Source: a virus (Duplodnaviria; Heunggongvirae; Uroviricota; Caudoviricetes). Taken from it: a DNA stretch of 34,932 nt. This document shows, piece by piece, positions 8,278 to 34,932 of the stretch. The notes beneath the pieces were generated by a model, which saw only the letters and a program-made list of their open reading frames with translations, was not told where the DNA came from and made no database searches. The stretch lies in the IMG/VR virus record IMGVR_UViG_2718218452_000007; one strand, 5' to 3'. Position numbers and translations under genes: made by a program. Each line of letters begins with the position of its first letter. Position 1 is the stretch's first letter.

Positions 8278-8544
8278 TTATTTTCTGTTGAGTTTATTGA
8301 TGAACAATAATACTACTGATACAAAAATAGCGGAAAAAATATAATAAATGGTTTCTGTATAGCCACCTAGATTAAGATGTTTTATTATCTTGGTAATACC
8401 TGAGTTTTCAAAGAGTGGTTTCGTTATCACAGGTGAGAGAGATGTTGAGGCAACTAAGCCAAACGTTATAGTAATATTCCTGTTGCTTATTTCGTTTTTG
8501 CTTGCATCTTTTAGTTTTATAACTTGCATTCTTGATTTTAACAT
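8278..8544 (-). CDS. Small protein with C-terminal transmembrane anchor (88 aa), second gene of cargo operon
   Basis: ORF 31 nt downstream of the 438-aa gene; hydrophobic IYYIFSAIFVSVVLLFI then basic tail; AT-rich; weak Shine-Dalgarno. Alternative start at Met6. Confidence 0.55.
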   Translation of the reverse strand: MLKSRMQVIKLKDASKNEISNRNITITFGLVASTSLSPVITKPLFENSGITKIIKHLNLGGYTETIYYIFSAIFVSVVLLFINKLNRK

Positions 8545-8575
8545 TTTGGCAAGGTTCTTTCGAGCCAGTTCTAAA

Positions 8576-9892
8576 TCATTTGACTGGACGTTGTTGGATA
8601 TAATGTTTTGTATTTCTCCATATTTTTTTTGAAAAGACTCTTAACCATTCCTCAAATTGAATGATTTCCTCTTGGGTTGTGGCTAGGCCAATATGGTTGT
8701 TCTCATTCTTGACTTGTTCTATTTTGGATTCGTAAAAAAAAGATATAAAATCTCTCAGGTCACTTTTTACTTGGTTGTCCCATATGATATTTGATTCGGA
8801 ATACGAATCTGTGATGTTTTTAAATTCTACTTTTTTTGAACATAGTGTGAGGGTTGCTCCTTGCTCTGAATAATAATTAAAGTCATTAAATACTCTGAGG
8901 TCGATGTGATTTTGCTTGTCTTTTTCATCATTAAAAAAAGTGCTCTTGCTTAATAGTGAAGATATTAATTGTTTGTTGTATTTACTATTTTTATTGGCGT
9001 TGCTTTTTTGGTTGTCATGGCTAAAAATATAAATATTAGGTTTCCCTTGCCATCCATGGTAGAAGTCTGTTGTTTTTCTGCCAAATAAAATATCTTTTAG
9101 TGTTTTTTTTCTTAATGTGTTGTGAATTATTGCTATTGTGGTGCGAGCGATATCGCTTAAGCTATTTTGTAGTTCAAATTCTTTTGCGTAGTTAATATAT
9201 TTTCCATTGATTGTTAAGTTGTCGCAAGATATATCTCTTGATTTTACTTCCACCTGTTTGATTTGTGTTGACAATAATCTCTTGGCTATAACTCGCTGGA
9301 CCAAATTCATTGGTGATAAGTCAAGCTCAATGACTCTGTTTGTATACTCCGTACTGGCAATGATTGAACTGCTGGCATTAAAAGGGAGATTTATTTTTGT
9401 GTCAATGAAATAATTTAATTCATTATCATAACGTTCTTCGTCGATGAAAGTTATATGGGATATGCCATTTCGATATAGGCGTATTATTGGAATTAAGAAA
9501 AACTCATTTTCTCCGCAACCAAATAAAATGGGTTTTTGACAACAAATAATGTTGTTGTAATATGATTGCTCTGTGATATGGAATAGTTTGTTTTCTGATA
9601 GTCTCAAGTTGATACAATTGTAGAATGAATGGATTGTTAAATCGCATAAGCCGGGAGAGTTTAAAAAATTAGCATCACCCAAATTGACGCTAACTCCATT
9701 ATTCTCGTATTTCATTGATAACTTTGTTGATAACACATTACAGCCTGAAAGACACTTAAAAGTGTTATCAGGGGTTAAAATCGCCAAAAACATACCTGTT
9801 TTGATTAATTGCGATGCAGTTTCCTCCGCATTGTCATATGTTGGTGACTGGGTTGTGTAAGTATGCCAGACTGTTCCTTTTTTGATCTGCAT
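8576..9892 (-). CDS. Hypothetical 438-aa protein, first gene of cargo operon at the P2 tin/old position
   Basis: Long clean ORF in very AT-rich DNA with AGGA Shine-Dalgarno 6-7 nt upstream; N/K/I/Y-rich; no Walker A, so not an Old-type ATPase; no family recognised. Confidence 0.75.
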   Translation of the reverse strand: MQIKKGTVWHTYTTQSPTYDNAEETASQLIKTGMFLAILTPDNTFKCLSGCNVLSTKLSMKYENNGVSVNLGDANFLNSPGLCDLTIHSFYNCINLRLSENKLFHITEQSYYNNIICCQKPILFGCGENEFFLIPIIRLYRNGISHITFIDEERYDNELNYFIDTKINLPFNASSSIIASTEYTNRVIELDLSPMNLVQRVIAKRLLSTQIKQVEVKSRDISCDNLTINGKYINYAKEFELQNSLSDIARTTIAIIHNTLRKKTLKDILFGRKTTDFYHGWQGKPNIYIFSHDNQKSNANKNSKYNKQLISSLLSKSTFFNDEKDKQNHIDLRVFNDFNYYSEQGATLTLCSKKVEFKNITDSYSESNIIWDNQVKSDLRDFISFFYESKIEQVKNENNHIGLATTQEEIIQFEEWLRVFSKKIWRNTKHYIQQRPVK

Positions 9893-10245: not shown

Positions 10246-11280
10246 TCAGCCGTTGTCGGTGTCCAGTGAGTAGTTTTTAAAGCGGATGACCTCCTGACCG
10301 AGCCAGCCGTTTATCTCGCGGATCCTGTCCTGTAACGGGATAAGCTCATTGCGGACAAAGACCTTTGCCACTTTCTCAATATCACCCAGCGACCCGACGT
10401 TCTCCGGCTTGCCGCCCATCAACTGAAAAGGGATGCGGTGCGCGTCCAGCAGGTCTGCGGCGCTGGCTTTTTTGATATTAAAAAAATCGTCCTTCGTTGC
10501 CACTTCACTGAGCGGGATAATTTTAATGCCGTCGGCTTTCCCTTGCGGGGCATAGAGAAACAGATTTTTAAAGTTGTTGCGGCCTTTCGACTTCACCATG
10601 TTTTCGCGGAGCATTTCGATATCGTTGCGATCCTGCACGGCATCAGTGACGTACATGATGTATCCGGCATGTGCGCCGTTTTCGTAATACTTGCGGCGGA
10701 ACAGCGTGGCCGACTCATTCAGCCAGGCAGAGTTAAGGGCGCTGAGATATTCCGGCAGGCCGTACAGCTCCTGATTAATATCCGGCTCCAGCAGGTGAAA
10801 CACGGAACCGGGCGCGAAGGCTGTCGGCTCGTTGAAGGACGGCACCCACCAGTAAACATCCTCTTCCACACCACGGCGGGTATATTTTGCCGGTGAGGTT
10901 TCCAGTCTGATGACTTTACCGGTAGTGCTGTAACGCTTTTCCAGAAACGCATTACCGAACACCAGAAAATCCAGCACAAAGCGGCTGAAATCCTGCTGGG
11001 ACAGCCACGGATGCGGGATAAATGTCGAGGCCAGAATATTGCGTTTGACGTAAATCGGGGAGCTATGATGCACGGCAGCACGCAGGCTTTTTGCCAGACC
11101 GGTAAAGCTGACCGGTGGCTCATACCATCTGCCGTTACTGATGCATTCGACGTAATCCAGAATGTCACGGCGGTCGAGTACCGGCACCGGTTCGCCAAAG
11201 GTGAATGCCTCCATTTTCGGGGCGCTGGCGGTCATTTTTTTTGCCGCAGGTTGCAGTGTTTTCCCTTTTTTCTTGCTCAT
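10246..11280 (-). CDS. Q: Portal protein
   Basis: 344 aa, start overlaps the P stop; matches P2 Q as recalled. Confidence 0.92.
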   Translation of the reverse strand: MSKKKGKTLQPAAKKMTASAPKMEAFTFGEPVPVLDRRDILDYVECISNGRWYEPPVSFTGLAKSLRAAVHHSSPIYVKRNILASTFIPHPWLSQQDFSRFVLDFLVFGNAFLEKRYSTTGKVIRLETSPAKYTRRGVEEDVYWWVPSFNEPTAFAPGSVFHLLEPDINQELYGLPEYLSALNSAWLNESATLFRRKYYENGAHAGYIMYVTDAVQDRNDIEMLRENMVKSKGRNNFKNLFLYAPQGKADGIKIIPLSEVATKDDFFNIKKASAADLLDAHRIPFQLMGGKPENVGSLGDIEKVAKVFVRNELIPLQDRIREINGWLGQEVIRFKNYSLDTDNG

Positions 11281-18551: not shown

Positions 18552-18981
18552 TGCCGTCACGGTGCTGAAAACTAACCCCGATATGCTGCGGATATTCGTG
18601 GATCACGGGAGTATTGCCTCCACGCTGGCGGCGTCGTTGTCATTCGAAAAGCGTTACACGCTCAATGTCATTGTGACCGACTTTACCGGTGATTTTGACC
18701 TGCTCATCGTGCCGGTGCTGGCGTGGCTGCGGGTAAATCAGCCCGACATCATGACCACCGACGCAGGTCAGAAAAAGGGCTTCACGTTTTATGCAGACAT
18801 CAACAATGACAGCAGCTTTGATATCAGCATCAGCCTGATGCTGACCGAGCGAACGCTGGTCAGTGAGGTGGACGGCGCACTGCATGTGAAGAATATCCCG
18901 GAACCTCCGCCGCCGGAGCCGGTCACCCGCCCGGTGGAGCTTTATATCAATGGCGAACTGGTGAGTAAGTGGGATGAATGA
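18514..18981 (+). CDS. R: Tail completion protein R
   Basis: 155 aa, P2 order. Confidence 0.88.
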   Translation: MLKPDSLRRALTDAVTVLKTNPDMLRIFVDHGSIASTLAASLSFEKRYTLNVIVTDFTGDFDLLIVPVLAWLRVNQPDIMTTDAGQKKGFTFYADINNDSSFDISISLMLTERTLVSEVDGALHVKNIPEPPPPEPVTRPVELYINGELVSKWDE

Positions 18982-19426
18982 GTTTAAGCGTTTTGAAGAC
19001 CGGCTGACCGGGCTGATTGAATCGCTGTCACCGTCAGGGCGTCGGCGACTGAGCGCCGAACTGGCGAAACGTCTGCGTCAGAGTCAGCAGCGTCGGGTGA
19101 TGGCACAGAAAGCCCCGGACGGCACACCCTACGCGCCACGTCAGCAGCAGAGCGCCAGAAAAAAGACCGGTCGCGTTAAGCGAAAAATGTTTGCGAAACT
19201 TATCACCAGTCGTTTTTTGCATATCCGCGCCAGCCCGGAACAGGCATCAATGGAATTTTACGGCGGGAAGTCGCCGAAAATCGCCAGTGTGCATCAGTTC
19301 GGTCTGTCGGAAGAAACCCGGAAAGACGGTAAGAAAATTGATTATCCGGCGCGTCCTCTGCTCGGCTTTACCGGTGAGGATGTGCAGATGATTGAAGAGA
19401 TTATCCTGGCTCACCTTGAGCGTTAG
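18974..19426 (+). CDS. S: Tail completion protein S
   Basis: 150 aa, overlaps the R end. Confidence 0.88.
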   Translation: MNEFKRFEDRLTGLIESLSPSGRRRLSAELAKRLRQSQQRRVMAQKAPDGTPYAPRQQQSARKKTGRVKRKMFAKLITSRFLHIRASPEQASMEFYGGKSPKIASVHQFGLSEETRKDGKKIDYPARPLLGFTGEDVQMIEEIILAHLER

Positions 19427-19456
19427 TTTTATCCAGGCAGAGGCTGATGCGCAATT

Positions 19457-19491
19457 AAACATTGAGCGGCCATGCTGGTCGCTCAATGTTT
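19457..19491. terminator. 12-bp perfect hairpin between convergent S and the cargo gene (likely bidirectional terminator)
   Basis: aaacattgagcg / loop gccatgctggt / cgctcaatgttt; flanking T/A runs are weak. Confidence 0.45.
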
Positions 19492-19497
19492 AGAGGT

Positions 19498-20283
19498 TTA
19501 TGAGTGATTTTTATTTGATGCTTTGTATTCTACAACCTTCTTATTGGCGTAAAGGAATTTTGTATATGACAGGAATATAACCAGACCTGAAATGAAATAG
19601 ATGAGGGATATTATTAATAATGCTTTTTTTTGGCTGTTATTATCTTTAATCTCCTGACTTAACCATTCCGAGTCCTCCTCGTTTAGCTGTAAGAGCTTAT
19701 TGCAGGCGATCTCAGGAAGTGTGTCTTTTATAAATACGTTTCGTAGCCTCTTGCAATCGGCAAGGCTATAAGTTTTATTGAATTCAACTGTTTTATTGTT
19801 GAAGGATAAAAGAACTTTGTCACTATAAACATAGTACATCATATTTTTATATGGTATGCCTATGGCATCTCTTACTATAACGGATTGTTTGTTGTGTATA
19901 TAACATGCGAAGAGAATATAAATAATGCTGGACAGAATTACAATTATTGTTTTAATTATGTGTGGTGGTTTTGTTATGTCACCCCAGAAGCGAGTAAGAA
20001 AAAAATACGATGTTTTTAGTTTTCCATCAATCAGCCCCTGCTGTATCATTCTCACATCTTCGATGCCTGATACATTGATTCCGTTAATTATTTTAAATAG
20101 TTGAATGTCGCGCCATTTTTTGTCGAGCATTTTTAACTTTCTGTCTGAATACTCAAAATTGAAATGATGTGCAATAAACCTCATAAGATTACTTTTACCA
20201 AAGGTAATAAATGTTAATGCTATTAATAAAAATAGATACAAAGAGATAAACCACCACGCATTAGTCACATTATCACTGAACAT
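19498..20283 (-). CDS. Hypothetical 261-aa integral membrane protein (cargo at the P2 orf30 position)
   Basis: AT-rich ORF with GAGGAGA Shine-Dalgarno; three hydrophobic helices (WWFISLYLFLLIALTFITF, IIKTIIVILSSIIYILFACYI, ALLIISLIYFISGLVIFLSY); opposite strand to the late operons. Confidence 0.75.
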   Translation of the reverse strand: MFSDNVTNAWWFISLYLFLLIALTFITFGKSNLMRFIAHHFNFEYSDRKLKMLDKKWRDIQLFKIINGINVSGIEDVRMIQQGLIDGKLKTSYFFLTRFWGDITKPPHIIKTIIVILSSIIYILFACYIHNKQSVIVRDAIGIPYKNMMYYVYSDKVLLSFNNKTVEFNKTYSLADCKRLRNVFIKDTLPEIACNKLLQLNEEDSEWLSQEIKDNNSQKKALLIISLIYFISGLVIFLSYTKFLYANKKVVEYKASNKNHS

Positions 20284-20300
20284 TACGCTCTCCTCGAATG

Positions 20301-20319
20301 TTGTATGGTCGTTCTACAA
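20301..20319 (+). promoter_or_regulatory. Late-promoter activator element upstream of V
   Basis: TTGT-N11-ACAA, a perfect 4-bp dyad; same pattern as at 13121 and 26607. Confidence 0.45.
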
Positions 20320-20366
20320 ATGAATCCAGATAGCATAACTTTTATATATTGTGCAATCTCACACGC

Positions 20367-21002
20367 ATGAACACTCTCGCAAATATTCAGGAACTCGCGC
20401 GCGCACTGCGCAACATGATTCGTACCGGCCTTGTCGTCGAAACCAACCTTAAAGCCGGTCGCTGCCGTGTGCAGACCGGTGGCATGTGCACTGACTGGCT
20501 TCAGTGGCTGACCCATCGTGCCGGACGTTCGCGCACATGGTGGGCACCTTCCGTGGGGGAGCAGGTGCTGATTCTGGCTGTGGGCGGTGAACTCGACACG
20601 GCGTTCGTTCTGCCGGGGATTTATTCCGGCGATAACCCCGCGCCGTCTGCGTCGGCGGATGCCCTGCATATCCGTTTCCCTGACGGGGCGGTGATTGAGT
20701 ATGAACCCGAAACCAGTGCACTCACGGTAAGCGGAATTAAAACGGCCAGCGTGACGGCTTCTGATTCTGTTACTGCCACGGTGCCGGTGGTCATGGTGAA
20801 AGCATCAACCCGCGTCACCCTGGACACACCGGAGGTGGTCTGCACCAACAGGCTGATTACCGGCACGCTGGAAGTGCAGAAGGGCGGGACGATGCACGGC
20901 AACATTGAACACACCGGCGGTGAACTCTCATCAAACGGTAAGGTACTGCATACCCATAAACACCCCGGCGACAGCGGCGGCACAACCGGGAGCCCTCTAT
21001 GA
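20367..21002 (+). CDS. V: Baseplate spike protein
   Basis: 211 aa from ATG 20367 (MNTLANIQ...); tracked ORF starts at a TTG 6 codons earlier. Confidence 0.9.
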   Translation: MNTLANIQELARALRNMIRTGLVVETNLKAGRCRVQTGGMCTDWLQWLTHRAGRSRTWWAPSVGEQVLILAVGGELDTAFVLPGIYSGDNPAPSASADALHIRFPDGAVIEYEPETSALTVSGIKTASVTASDSVTATVPVVMVKASTRVTLDTPEVVCTNRLITGTLEVQKGGTMHGNIEHTGGELSSNGKVLHTHKHPGDSGGTTGSPL

Positions 21003-25774: not shown

Positions 25775-26368
25775 ATGTTTACTAAGCGACGATTAAAAAA
25801 TATTAACTGGGAGGCAAGTTCAGTGATTCTTGCTATGGTTCTCTTTGCTGGAAATATATTTTATACAAATCATCGTGATGATATAAGCATGGAGGCTGAG
25901 AGAGACAGTATCAGAACAATGTTTGCATATGAAATCGCTAATAACCATCGCGCTCTCACCTTTCTTGATAAAACGAGAAATATTGGCTTTGACGAAAATT
26001 CGGAGCATTTTGTTGGCGAGCCTTTTGCCATTAATGTCAAATCATCAGGGGGACCTCGCTTACAGATTGCATTAAACCAGACTGATAAAGTGTTTAAATC
26101 ATACTTCAGCGAATTAAGTAAGCTTGATAAAGAGGATGTTACTCTTCTTATGGACTATTACCATGAGCAAAGCATCCTGCTGGAGCGTGTAAAATCTACG
26201 TTACAGAAGATGAAAAGTGGTAATGATATTAAAGTTGATATTGATGGTTACTTATTAGAAGAACACTTCATGAATGAGCTTAATCTTTCTAATATTTTGC
26301 TTAAACGCTATAGCTATTTATTATCACAGCACGCTAAAGAACATAAAACAAAAGATTTACATAATTGA
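25775..26368 (+). CDS. Hypothetical 197-aa protein with N-terminal membrane anchor (cargo at the P2 Z/fun position)
   Basis: AT-rich ORF with AAGGTG Shine-Dalgarno; one hydrophobic helix near the N-terminus (SSVILAMVLFAGNIFY), then a charged soluble domain. Confidence 0.72.
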   Translation: MFTKRRLKNINWEASSVILAMVLFAGNIFYTNHRDDISMEAERDSIRTMFAYEIANNHRALTFLDKTRNIGFDENSEHFVGEPFAINVKSSGGPRLQIALNQTDKVFKSYFSELSKLDKEDVTLLMDYYHEQSILLERVKSTLQKMKSGNDIKVDIDGYLLEEHFMNELNLSNILLKRYSYLLSQHAKEHKTKDLHN

Positions 26369-33570: not shown

Positions 33571-34932
33571 TCACTTACCGTGGGGATTACGCGTGGTTTC
33601 CCCGGAGAAATTACGCATCAGCAGCGCGTAATTGAGCTCAAGATCCTGCGGGACCGGGAGCCACACAGTATAACCATCGCCTGGTGCTATCGGCATAGCT
33701 TCGCCTTTGGCGTTTTCCATGTGCTCAAGGGTAAAATTAATGTTGCCTTGCGGCGTCATCAGCTCAAGGCTGTCGCCAACGGAGAATTTATTTTTCACCG
33801 CTACCGCCGCGAGGTCCCCCTTGCGCTCACCGGTAAACTCACCAACAAACTGCTGGCGGTCAGAAACTGAATAACCGTATTCGTAGTTCTGATAATCGTC
33901 GTGAGTATGACGACGCAGGAAACCTTCGGTATAGCCACGATGCGCCAGACCTTCCAGAGTTTCCAGCAGGCTGGTATCGAACGGTTTTCCCGCAGCGGCG
34001 TCATCGATAGCTTTGCGGTAAACCTGTGCGGTGCGTGCACAATAGTAGAAAGATTTGGTACGACCTTCGATTTTCAGCGAATGCACGCCCATTTTGGTCA
34101 GGCGTTCTACATGGGCGATGGCGCGCAGATCTTTCGAGTTCATGATGTAAGTGCCGTGCTCATCTTCAAACGCGGTCATATACTCGCCCGGACGCTGGGC
34201 CTCTTCGATCATAAACACTTTGTCGGTTGGTGCGCCGATACCCAGCGTCGGCTCAACATTTTGCACCGGAATCGGCTCGTACTTGTGTACGATGTTGCCA
34301 ACATCATCTTCTTTCCCTTCCTGGACGTTGTACTCCCAGCGGCAGGCGTTGGTGCAGGTGCCCTGGTTCGGGTCGCGCTTGTTGATATAGCCAGAGAGCA
34401 GGCAGCGACCGGAGTAGGCCATGCACAGCGCGCCGTGAACGAAGATCTCGATCTCCATATCCGGCACCTGATTGCGGATCTCTTCAATCTCTTCCAGCGA
34501 CAGCTCGCGAGAGAGGATCACGCGGGTCAGGCCCATTTGCTGCCAGAATTTCACCGTCGCCCAGTTCACGGCGTTAGCCTGCACCGAAAGGTGGATCGGC
34601 ATTTCAGGGAAGTGCTCACGCACCAGCATAATCAGCCCTGGATCGGACATAATCAGCGCATCCGGCCCCATTTCCACCACCGGTTTCAGGTCACGGATAA
34701 AGGTTTTCAGCTTGGCGTTGTGCGGTGCAATGTTGACCACGACATAAAACTTTTTCCCCAGCGCGTGGGCTTCATTGATGCCGAGCTGAAGATTTTCGTG
34801 GTTGAATTCGTTGTTGCGCACACGCAGGGAATAACGCGGCTGGCCCGCATAAACAGCATCTGCGCCATAAGCGAAAGCGTAACGCATATTTTTCAGCGTT
34901 CCCGCCGGGGAAAGGAGTTCCGGTTTAAACAT
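33571..34932 (-). CDS. yegQ: Peptidase U32-family protein YegQ (RlhA, 23S rRNA 5-hydroxycytidine synthase)
   Basis: 453 aa, start codon at the window end (34930-34932); N-terminus MFKPELLSPAGTLKNMRYAFAYGADAVYAGQP as recalled. Confidence 0.88.
   Translation of the reverse strand: MFKPELLSPAGTLKNMRYAFAYGADAVYAGQPRYSLRVRNNEFNHENLQLGINEAHALGKKFYVVVNIAPHNAKLKTFIRDLKPVVEMGPDALIMSDPGLIMLVREHFPEMPIHLSVQANAVNWATVKFWQQMGLTRVILSRELSLEEIEEIRNQVPDMEIEIFVHGALCMAYSGRCLLSGYINKRDPNQGTCTNACRWEYNVQEGKEDDVGNIVHKYEPIPVQNVEPTLGIGAPTDKVFMIEEAQRPGEYMTAFEDEHGTYIMNSKDLRAIAHVERLTKMGVHSLKIEGRTKSFYYCARTAQVYRKAIDDAAAGKPFDTSLLETLEGLAHRGYTEGFLRRHTHDDYQNYEYGYSVSDRQQFVGEFTGERKGDLAAVAVKNKFSVGDSLELMTPQGNINFTLEHMENAKGEAMPIAPGDGYTVWLPVPQDLELNYALLMRNFSGETTRNPHGK

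Follow-up and report, generated by a model that had tools for sequence, protein, structure and literature searches.

The AT-rich gene on the minus strand between the tail genes S and V of the prophage studied here is, essentially certainly as judged by sequence identity, the orthologue of orf30 of phage P2, and thus an already known, uncharacterised gene of a model phage. Its product belongs, by its sequence relationships, to a small and deeply diverged protein family bridging to DUF6216, and this family was found almost only at the S-V slot of P2-like prophages. Orf30 is predicted to be an inner-membrane protein with three helices in an N-out/C-in arrangement. That it serves in the exclusion of incoming phages at the level of the cell envelope is a possibility that we put forward tentatively.

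The window, i.e. the whole stretch of 34,932 nucleotides that was analysed, contains a complete P2-type prophage, bordered by a YegS-like kinase gene (1-900) on one side and a U32 peptidase gene (33571-34932) on the other. In the list of open reading frames, the orf30 coding sequence occupies positions 19498-20283 of the minus strand; from its ATG start codon it specifies a protein of 261 amino acids (30.7 kDa, pI 9.5). It is flanked on the plus strand by the tail completion gene S (18974-19426; Pfam Phage_tail_S, 4.9e-44) and the baseplate spike gene V (20367-21002; Pfam Phage_spike, 1e-27, and Phage_base_V, 3e-20). The AT-rich cassette as a whole comprises everything from the S stop codon to the V start codon (19427-20366), and the ATG of orf30 is separated from that of V by 83 bp (20284-20366). 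The GC content of the orf30 ORF is 0.32 (GC3 0.35), compared to 0.55 for S and 0.60 for V, and along the DNA it is 0.32-0.37 across positions 19400-20400 versus ∼0.58 on either side. A preliminary description of this region had reported a 261-residue, AT-rich ORF on the opposite strand between S and V, with three predicted transmembrane helices, a strong GAGGAGA ribosome-binding site and the V late-promoter element in the 83-bp interval. Since the ORF list, the Pfam assignments of the flanks, the GC values, the ribosome-binding site, the interval and the hydropathy profile all match, every descriptive element of it was correct.

The preliminary description had likened the gene to P2 orf30 by its position, and the correspondence turned out to go further. 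Across the cassette, DNA identity to P2 (9368-10304) is 92.3%, and the 940-bp interval matches 21 phage records. In the P2 record, the matched interval is annotated with 'orf30', 'terminator' and 'activator binding site; activation of pV promoter'. At the protein level, BLASTP aligned the window protein with P2 Orf30 (AAD03281) at 85% identity over 261/261 residues without gaps (E 2e-168), and the protein matched PHROG 2407, a function-unknown group, over positions 1-261 of 261 (8e-144). Given this full-length DNA and protein identity and the PHROG 2407 match, the gene is orf30 itself and does not merely share its position. P2 Orf30 (AF063097, 9439-10224) has the same 261 amino acids in length, the same S-V position and orientation, and the same hairpin and pV activator site. 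The window allele differs from it by 39 substitutions, mainly in the first and second transmembrane segments (TM1 and TM2), and by a ribosome-binding site that reads GAGGAGA instead of the AAGGAGA of P2. The P2 record describes orf30 as nonessential. In a later comparative paper it is entered as 'unknown', and its locus is counted among three regions that P2-like phages acquired horizontally (PMC3091744). Functional data were not found in the literature on orf30, its accessions, DUF6216 or the 8xMP family.

Intactness was counted among close IMG/VR alleles that were not cut by contig ends (n = 72); 71 of these were intact, and the other one carried a single-base deletion. For 48 distinct alleles, the dN/dS of orf30 was 0.46, compared to 0.08 for S and 0.19 for V, with a dN that was 5-7 fold that of S and V at a similar dS. 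This means that orf30 is under constraint yet fast-evolving, and such fast protein evolution is as expected for a conflict gene. The variation between alleles is concentrated in TM1 and TM2, while both loops and the C-terminal tail are conserved. A chance ORF or pseudogene was ruled out by the dN/dS of 0.46 and the 71 intact alleles. In addition, distant relatives (17-40% identity) keep the length and architecture of orf30, and from the intact alleles, the dN/dS below 1 and these relatives we conclude that orf30 is a real gene.

It could still be argued that the gene has no current function, and that it is a hitch-hiking or decaying gene kept by its linkage to the V promoter in the shared cassette. 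The relaxed dN/dS relative to S and V would be consistent with this, as would the lack of a recognisable promoter and the lack of any reported phenotype in 30 years. We nevertheless consider this very unlikely, given that all alleles but one are intact, that the loops, unlike the helices, are conserved, and that even relatives at 17-30% identity keep the length, the three helices, the family motif and the cysteine pair described below; the conserved strong ribosome-binding site and the confident fold predicted by AlphaFold speak against it as well.

The protein family of Orf30 is small. An exhaustive search of 1.84 billion representative proteins returned just 41 clusters at an E-value of 1e-3 or better, and a word-indexed homology search, also when run with a profile, did not go beyond 5-6 clusters. 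Likewise, a first scan of genome contigs with the family alignment gave no match, and tblastn of distant members against sequenced phages recovered P2-type alleles only. Full-length relatives in this search have 250-270 amino acids and share 17-33% identity, the family as a whole spanning 17-40%. The family alignment of 25 sequences (A2) shows that its members have in common the three helices, a motif in the first loop, D-x-Q-L-F-(K/R)-x-x-N-G-(I/V)-N-V...D-A, and a pair of cysteines in the second loop, which are the only conserved cysteines of the family. Residues Q61, G68 and G87 of loop 1 are invariant or nearly so across A2, Cys194 is present in all 25 members and Cys177 in 22 of them.

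Weak matches to Pfam DUF6216 (PF19723) were obtained for 10 of the 25 family members. A Sodalis member (P0028) scored 28.9 bits, above the DUF6216 gathering cutoff of 27.3, over profile positions 10-265 of 270, and two others (P0044, 21.8 bits; P0007, 17.2 bits) scored below this cutoff. The window protein matched P0028 in phmmer over residues 17-255 (E 1.4e-9) and gave no match to the DUF6216 model itself, so that the branch of P2 and E. coli lies outside the current Pfam boundary. With P0028 above the cutoff and the window protein without a match, orf30 is best called a divergent relative of DUF6216. DUF6216 proteins resemble Orf30 in their length of ∼260 amino acids, and the member that passes the cutoff also sits in the S-V slot. 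Functional papers on DUF6216 were not found. Searches with the window protein gave a sole, sub-threshold Pfam match to DUF6535, which fell on a transmembrane segment, no match in NCBIfam, and 0 families in PADLOC-DB 2.0 at an E-value of 10 or less.

The genomic position of the family is strikingly uniform. In all 14 distant members for which both flanks could be read, the gene lies between V and S, adjoins V and is on the strand opposite to V. These loci come from IMG/VR (L075, L076, L078 and L080), from NCBI (L081 in E. coli and L171 in Sodalis), from metagenomes (L165, L166 and L167) and from a V-anchored survey (L089, L118, L139, L150 and L156). In one further locus (L085) the family gene adjoins V and S is past the contig end. 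The only odd case was found in Enterobacter (L082, 41% identity), where a contig-end copy is followed by chromosomal-looking genes. Any second cargo gene lies on the S side of the family gene (L075, L089 and L118). The preliminary description had spoken of P2 orf30 as horizontally acquired. The base composition of the gene fits this view, but the family is tied to the S-V slot and deeply diverged there, so that orf30 is a long-standing occupant of the slot and not a one-off moron of recent arrival.

Comparison with empty-slot phages defined the borders of the cassette. In three such phages, two with a V that is 98% identical (L083 from E. albertii, and L101) and one other (L100), there is no similarity to the window from the S stop codon to the V ATG, and similarity resumes at both gene borders. 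The exchangeable unit is accordingly exactly 19427-20366, with the pV regulatory region included, and the orf30 cassette consists of a two-way hairpin, the ORF for the 261-residue protein and its own V late-promoter region. As is typical of accessory 'moron' genes, orf30 is absent from near-identical phages, has sharp borders and differs in GC content from its surroundings (0.32 versus 0.58).

Among E. coli genomes, 1580 have this V type, 1024 have the empty junction and 463 have orf30. About two thirds of these prophages thus have an empty slot, fewer than a third have orf30 in it, and the small remainder has other cargo, these counts being approximate because some genomes have several prophages. 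A slot survey of 80 V-anchored loci from other Enterobacterales showed ∼21 empty slots and ∼41 slots with AT-rich cargo of 0.8 to over 3 kb, with a family gene in 6 of the occupied slots. PADLOC recognised among the S-V cargo an RT_V-type (RT/DRT-type) reverse transcriptase, PDC-S06, PDC-S33 with RelA_SpoT, NsnA, AriA and mad3, and Pfam recognised GmrSD_N, DUF4062, a caspase, AAA_21, an ion-channel domain and the 8xMP membrane family. The cargo also included fimbrial and Hcp-like genes. Phage R18C has been noted to have a different ORF at the orf30 locus (PMC6823313). The presence of recognised defence genes in the same slot of other P2-like prophages makes a defence role for orf30 plausible by location.

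Slots of this kind have been described elsewhere in P2-like phages. Like orf30, the old, tin and Z/fun morons of P2 and the genes of the cos-proximal and Z/fun hotspots are AT-rich accessory genes at fixed slots flanked by conserved P2 genes, and these slots turn over and carry defence systems (PMC9122126). The two hotspot studies examined cover the old/tin and Z/fun slots, one of them adding tail-cI, and neither covers the S-V slot. Orf30 differs from the old, tin and Z/fun morons in being a membrane protein for which no phenotype has been reported.

The fimbrial and Hcp-like genes found in the S-V slot elsewhere also point to an alternative that is unrelated to phages, namely lysogenic conversion, in which Orf30 would be an envelope protein that contributes to host fitness, for example by aiding stress tolerance or colonisation or by conferring immunity against a membrane-acting toxin or a tailocin. 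Three-helix inner-membrane proteins are typical of the immunity proteins to pore-forming colicins, which favours this alternative. In agreement with it, E. coli B REL606 has retained an intact orf30 (ECB_RS10570) in a decayed prophage remnant in which the neighbouring S and portal genes are truncated, and the neaT gene at the G/FI slot is a precedent for non-defence fitness cargo in a moron slot of P2-like phages (PMC3573123). Overall, we regard lysogenic conversion as unlikely, since Orf30 has no homology to any such function and the family was found almost only in phage genomes, with the contig-end copy as the one exception.

Next, the topology of Orf30 was predicted. Kyte-Doolittle peaks place TM1 at residues ∼9-28 (20200-20259, minus strand, peak 2.14), TM2 at residues ∼108-128 (19900-19962, minus strand, 2.49) and TM3 at residues ∼220-240 (19564-19626, minus strand, 2.58). 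TM1 is the most variable segment among the alleles, with 19 of 28 N-terminal sites being variable (mean entropy 0.65). Loop 1 (residues 29-107; 19963-20199, minus strand), which contains the family motif, has a family-wide net charge of +5.0, whereas that of loop 2 (residues 129-219; 19627-19899, minus strand), which contains Cys177 and Cys194, is -0.4. The C-terminal tail (19501-19563, minus strand) is basic, with 5 K+R versus 1 D+E and a family net charge of +2.4, and the family mean of K+R at the N-terminus is 0.04 per sequence. By the positive-inside rule, and with the conserved cysteine pair suggesting a periplasmic disulfide, the N-terminus would be outside, loop 1 cytoplasmic, loop 2 periplasmic and the C-terminus inside. 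Orf30 is thus predicted to expose a helical domain of ∼80 amino acids to the cytoplasm and an alpha/beta domain of ∼90 amino acids to the periplasm, the latter probably stapled by a Cys177-Cys194 disulfide.

An AlphaFold2 model based on A2 was confident (pLDDT 85.5, pTM 0.72). In this model, TM1 is part of a helix spanning residues 6-39, TM2 is part of a helix spanning 108-133, and TM3 and the tail form one long helix (201-259). Loop 1 is modelled as three short helices, including 47-66 and 73-85, and loop 2 as four strands over residues 140-172 with helices at 173-178 and 188-197. The model has no meaningful match to solved structures or to predicted viral structures. Specifically, the best Foldseek hit in the PDB had an E-value of 0.1 and was a faint claudin/TARP-like 'helices plus outer sheet' resemblance with a TM-score of 0.14, Foldseek against BFVD gave nothing at an E-value of 0.001 or better, and a profile search of PDB sequences gave noise only.

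The ribosome-binding site of orf30 (20289-20295, minus strand) lies 5 nt upstream of the start codon, the minus strand reading GAGGAGA-GCGTA-ATG (20295-20281). It is kept as (G/A)AGGAGA in all 11 upstream variants, and is AAGGAGA in most other alleles. The putative late-activator (Ogr) site of the V promoter, transferred from P2 10239-10266 with an offset of 10059, maps to 20298-20325 on the plus strand and starts 15 bp from the orf30 ATG. Every cassette type keeps a TTGT(G/A)T(A/G)G half-site, which is located ∼60-70 bp ahead of the V start codon. At the other end of the cassette, a two-way hairpin (19455-19493) separates the convergent 3' ends of S and orf30; it corresponds to the putative O-operon terminator of P2 (9397-9433) and its folding energy is -29.6 kcal/mol (z -3.9) for the plus and -22.7 kcal/mol (z -4.0) for the minus strand. 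A terminator scan did not list this hairpin because it has no run of 5 or more T, and it can serve both convergent genes.

The promoter of orf30 is less clear. No sigma-70 match of 8/12 or better was found on the minus strand in the 240 bp upstream of orf30. A weak sigma-70-like candidate with a score of 7/12 (20355-20382, minus strand; TTGCGA-16-GAGATT, with a TG before the -10) overlaps the pV -10 region and the first V codons. The preliminary description had held that the orf30 promoter must share the 83-bp interval with the V late-promoter element. This is borne out for the pV element, while for the orf30 promoter such sharing would be an indirect conclusion, the best candidate straddling the first codons of V. 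Ogr-driven divergent transcription of orf30 was rejected, because the centre of the activator site is ∼28 bp from the orf30 ATG and a minus-strand start 55 bp from that centre would fall within the ORF. For this reason orf30 is unlikely to be a late gene, and any orf30 promoter would in turn have to overlap pV.

These signals bear on the idea that Orf30 is an accessory protein of the lytic cycle that is dispensable in the laboratory, acting in lysis timing, in protection from re-adsorbing P2 particles, or in envelope steps of infection. Such a role would explain why the family is found almost only in P2-like phages and always abuts V and its late promoter, why the cassette brings its own pV region so that gene and late promoter travel together, and why orf30 is just downstream of the lysis cluster; moreover, the P2 record describes the gene as nonessential and not by a lysogen phenotype. 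We consider this quite unlikely all the same, as orf30 points away from both late operons with the activator site at the wrong distance, ∼65% of the E. coli prophages with this V type lack any gene at this place, a GC content of 32% and a high dN/dS are unlike those of core lytic genes, and orf30 is unmentioned in a recent study of the P2 virion and its infection.

In the exclusion reading, which we tentatively prefer, the prophage orf30 would be transcribed weakly from a promoter overlapping the silent pV region, and this promoter would be occluded once Ogr activates pV. Other phages would be stopped by Orf30 at the cell envelope, most probably through disturbed formation of the DNA conduit in the inner membrane; this would be superinfection exclusion of the kind known from P22 SieA, T4 Imm or HK97 gp15. 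It has been proposed in a recent P2 study that the tail tube ends before it reaches the inner membrane, the final conduit being formed by the tape-measure protein, which suggests a step that a protein like Orf30 could obstruct. Slot company, fast evolution, envelope location and the SieA precedent were noted as points favouring an anti-phage role.

By analogy with three-helix exclusion proteins such as P22 SieA, a defence role for Orf30 appears plausible. SieA is a prophage-made inner-membrane protein with three transmembrane segments, of which three sequence types with less than 30% identity occur at one locus (PMC10883804). Orf30 resembles it in being encoded by a prophage gene, in its three predicted helices, in its predicted inner-membrane location and in the occurrence of divergent types at one fixed locus of a single phage lineage. 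However, SieA has 162-164 amino acids and lacks large loop domains, whereas Orf30 has 261 amino acids and both loops, and exclusion has been demonstrated for SieA while for Orf30 it would hold by analogy only. Membership of the SieA family was rejected, as hhalign of A2 against P22 SieA gave a probability of 0.2%. HK97 gp15 and T4 Imm are small inner-membrane proteins that block genome entry, the HK97 protein being the product of a moron located within the tail genes. Both are much smaller than Orf30, and likening them to it is an analogy only.

Several observations weigh against exclusion, namely the absence of SieA or PADLOC homology and the absence of a clear promoter; no enzymatic or known defence domain was found in Orf30 by Pfam or PADLOC. 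P2 vir plates on P2 lysogens, which also counts against it. Furthermore, lysogens of the P2-like phages AC1, DC1 and SIAC10, all of which carry orf30, have been tested on eight phages, and only AC1 was reported to be protective, a protection that was reproduced by cloned genes of the cos-proximal hotspot (Rousset et al. 2022). The published orf30-carrying lysogens show no protection attributable to orf30, and this argues against exclusion.

The same negative lysogen data for AC1, DC1 and SIAC10 count against abortive infection, by which Orf30 would idle in the inner membrane, sense an incoming phage with its periplasmic or cytoplasmic domain, oligomerise and depolarise the membrane, so that the cell dies before any progeny is made. 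The predicted domains on both sides of the membrane would form a sensor-like architecture that is suited to this, and the single-gene cassette, the fast evolution of orf30 and the richness of the slot in AriA, RelA_SpoT toxSAS-like proteins, a caspase and reverse transcriptases would be in concordance with it. Since Orf30 has no PADLOC match, no pore-forming or enzymatic domain and no fold like that of known channel effectors, and since confinement to one lineage and one slot is unusual for cargo that usually moves between many contexts, abortive infection seems to us distinctly improbable.

As for the preferred reading of exclusion, its fullest form would be that Orf30 and DUF6216 constitute a P2-like-specific family with a previously unseen membrane fold, which shields lysogens either against incoming contractile-tailed phages, whose inner-membrane DNA conduit it blocks, or against killing by tailocins, and that the S-V slot is a third, overlooked defence hotspot. 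We regard this composite proposal as rather doubtful. If exclusion were true, Orf30 would represent a new fold among exclusion proteins and the S-V slot a third defence hotspot in P2-like phages; if exclusion is not shown, orf30 is an ordinary moron. Since the 1990s, this nonessential gene of a model phage has lacked an explanation; to what is known of it, the present analysis adds a family with a near-exclusive tie to its slot, the borders of a cassette with its own V promoter, a predicted topology and fold, and a defence-rich S-V slot. The slot-tied family linked to DUF6216, the V promoter of the cassette and the defence genes of the slot are not stated in the papers examined.

Within E. coli, the orf30 ORF was present in 463 of 5426 complete genomes (∼8.5%) at 80-100% DNA identity. 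The sequenced phage nearest to the window cassette is Peduovirus P24A7b, with 99.5% DNA identity, and the nearest genome is that of E. coli C7, with 100%.

Comparison of the interval between tail gene S and baseplate-spike gene V across P2-like prophages of other Enterobacterales (loci L083 to L162, each in its own coordinates) showed this S-V slot to be a hotspot for cargo genes. Among the products encoded there are a RelA_SpoT/PDC-S33 protein, an RT_V-type reverse transcriptase, PDC-S06, NsnA and AriA, as well as proteins with GmrSD_N, DUF4062, caspase and ion-channel domains (examples of cargo lie at L084 1779-2876, L118 556-2025, L088 2237-2899 and L092 2221-2883). The four-TM family '8xMP' is also found there and, like orf30, is encoded directly beside V on the strand opposite to it. 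The slot carries fimbrial and Hcp-like genes as well. The hotspot studies of P2-like phages that were consulted do not deal with the S-V slot.

In the P2 record, transcription of the V operon is annotated to start at position 10308, which is the A of the V ATG (the region of 20350-20369 in the window), implying that the V mRNA is leaderless or nearly leaderless. A GGCA(T/A/G)(T/C)CT element is located 11-17 nt upstream of the V ATG, and it is shared by empty slots and the majority of cassette types.

Copies of orf30 itself were mostly intact. E. coli B REL606 carries a defective P2-like remnant in which orf30 is intact (NC_012967 2110619-2111404, 99.6% DNA identity), while its neighbours, S and the portal gene, persist only as truncated pseudogenes. 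Among the 72 complete close alleles in IMG/VR only one was disrupted, namely a 99%-identity allele (L059 3001-3779) with a one-base deletion at CDS position 653; the deletion is either a genuine frameshift or an error introduced by sequencing. The only possible context outside the S-V slot that we encountered for the family is a homologue with 41% identity at a contig end of Enterobacter sp. CPE_E222 (L082 1-788); after it come a gene for an outer-membrane beta-barrel protein and then SIP, PadR and chemoreceptor genes, in place of S.

Some of the loci compared carry unexpected labels: L088 and L125 are assigned to the Gram-positive 'Vagococcus sp. WN89Y' and L123 to 'Chryseobacterium sp. 18061' (Bacteroidota). 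Their V genes are enterobacterial P2-like (76-85% protein identity), and these assemblies are probably contaminated or mislabelled.

The window prophage has AT-rich cargo in two further slots. The A/Q (old/tin) slot holds minus-strand ORFs of 438 and 88 aa (8278-9892), and the G/FI (Z/fun) slot a single plus-strand ORF of 197 aa (25775-26368). None of the three had a match in Pfam, PADLOC or NCBIfam, and they are candidates for accessory or defence genes of an unknown kind. The prophage is flanked by genes for a YegS-like lipid kinase (1-900) and a YegQ-like U32 peptidase (33571-34932). The integrase gene occupies 1897-2910, and an unannotated AT-rich ORF of 125 aa is present at the prophage junction (1255-1632).
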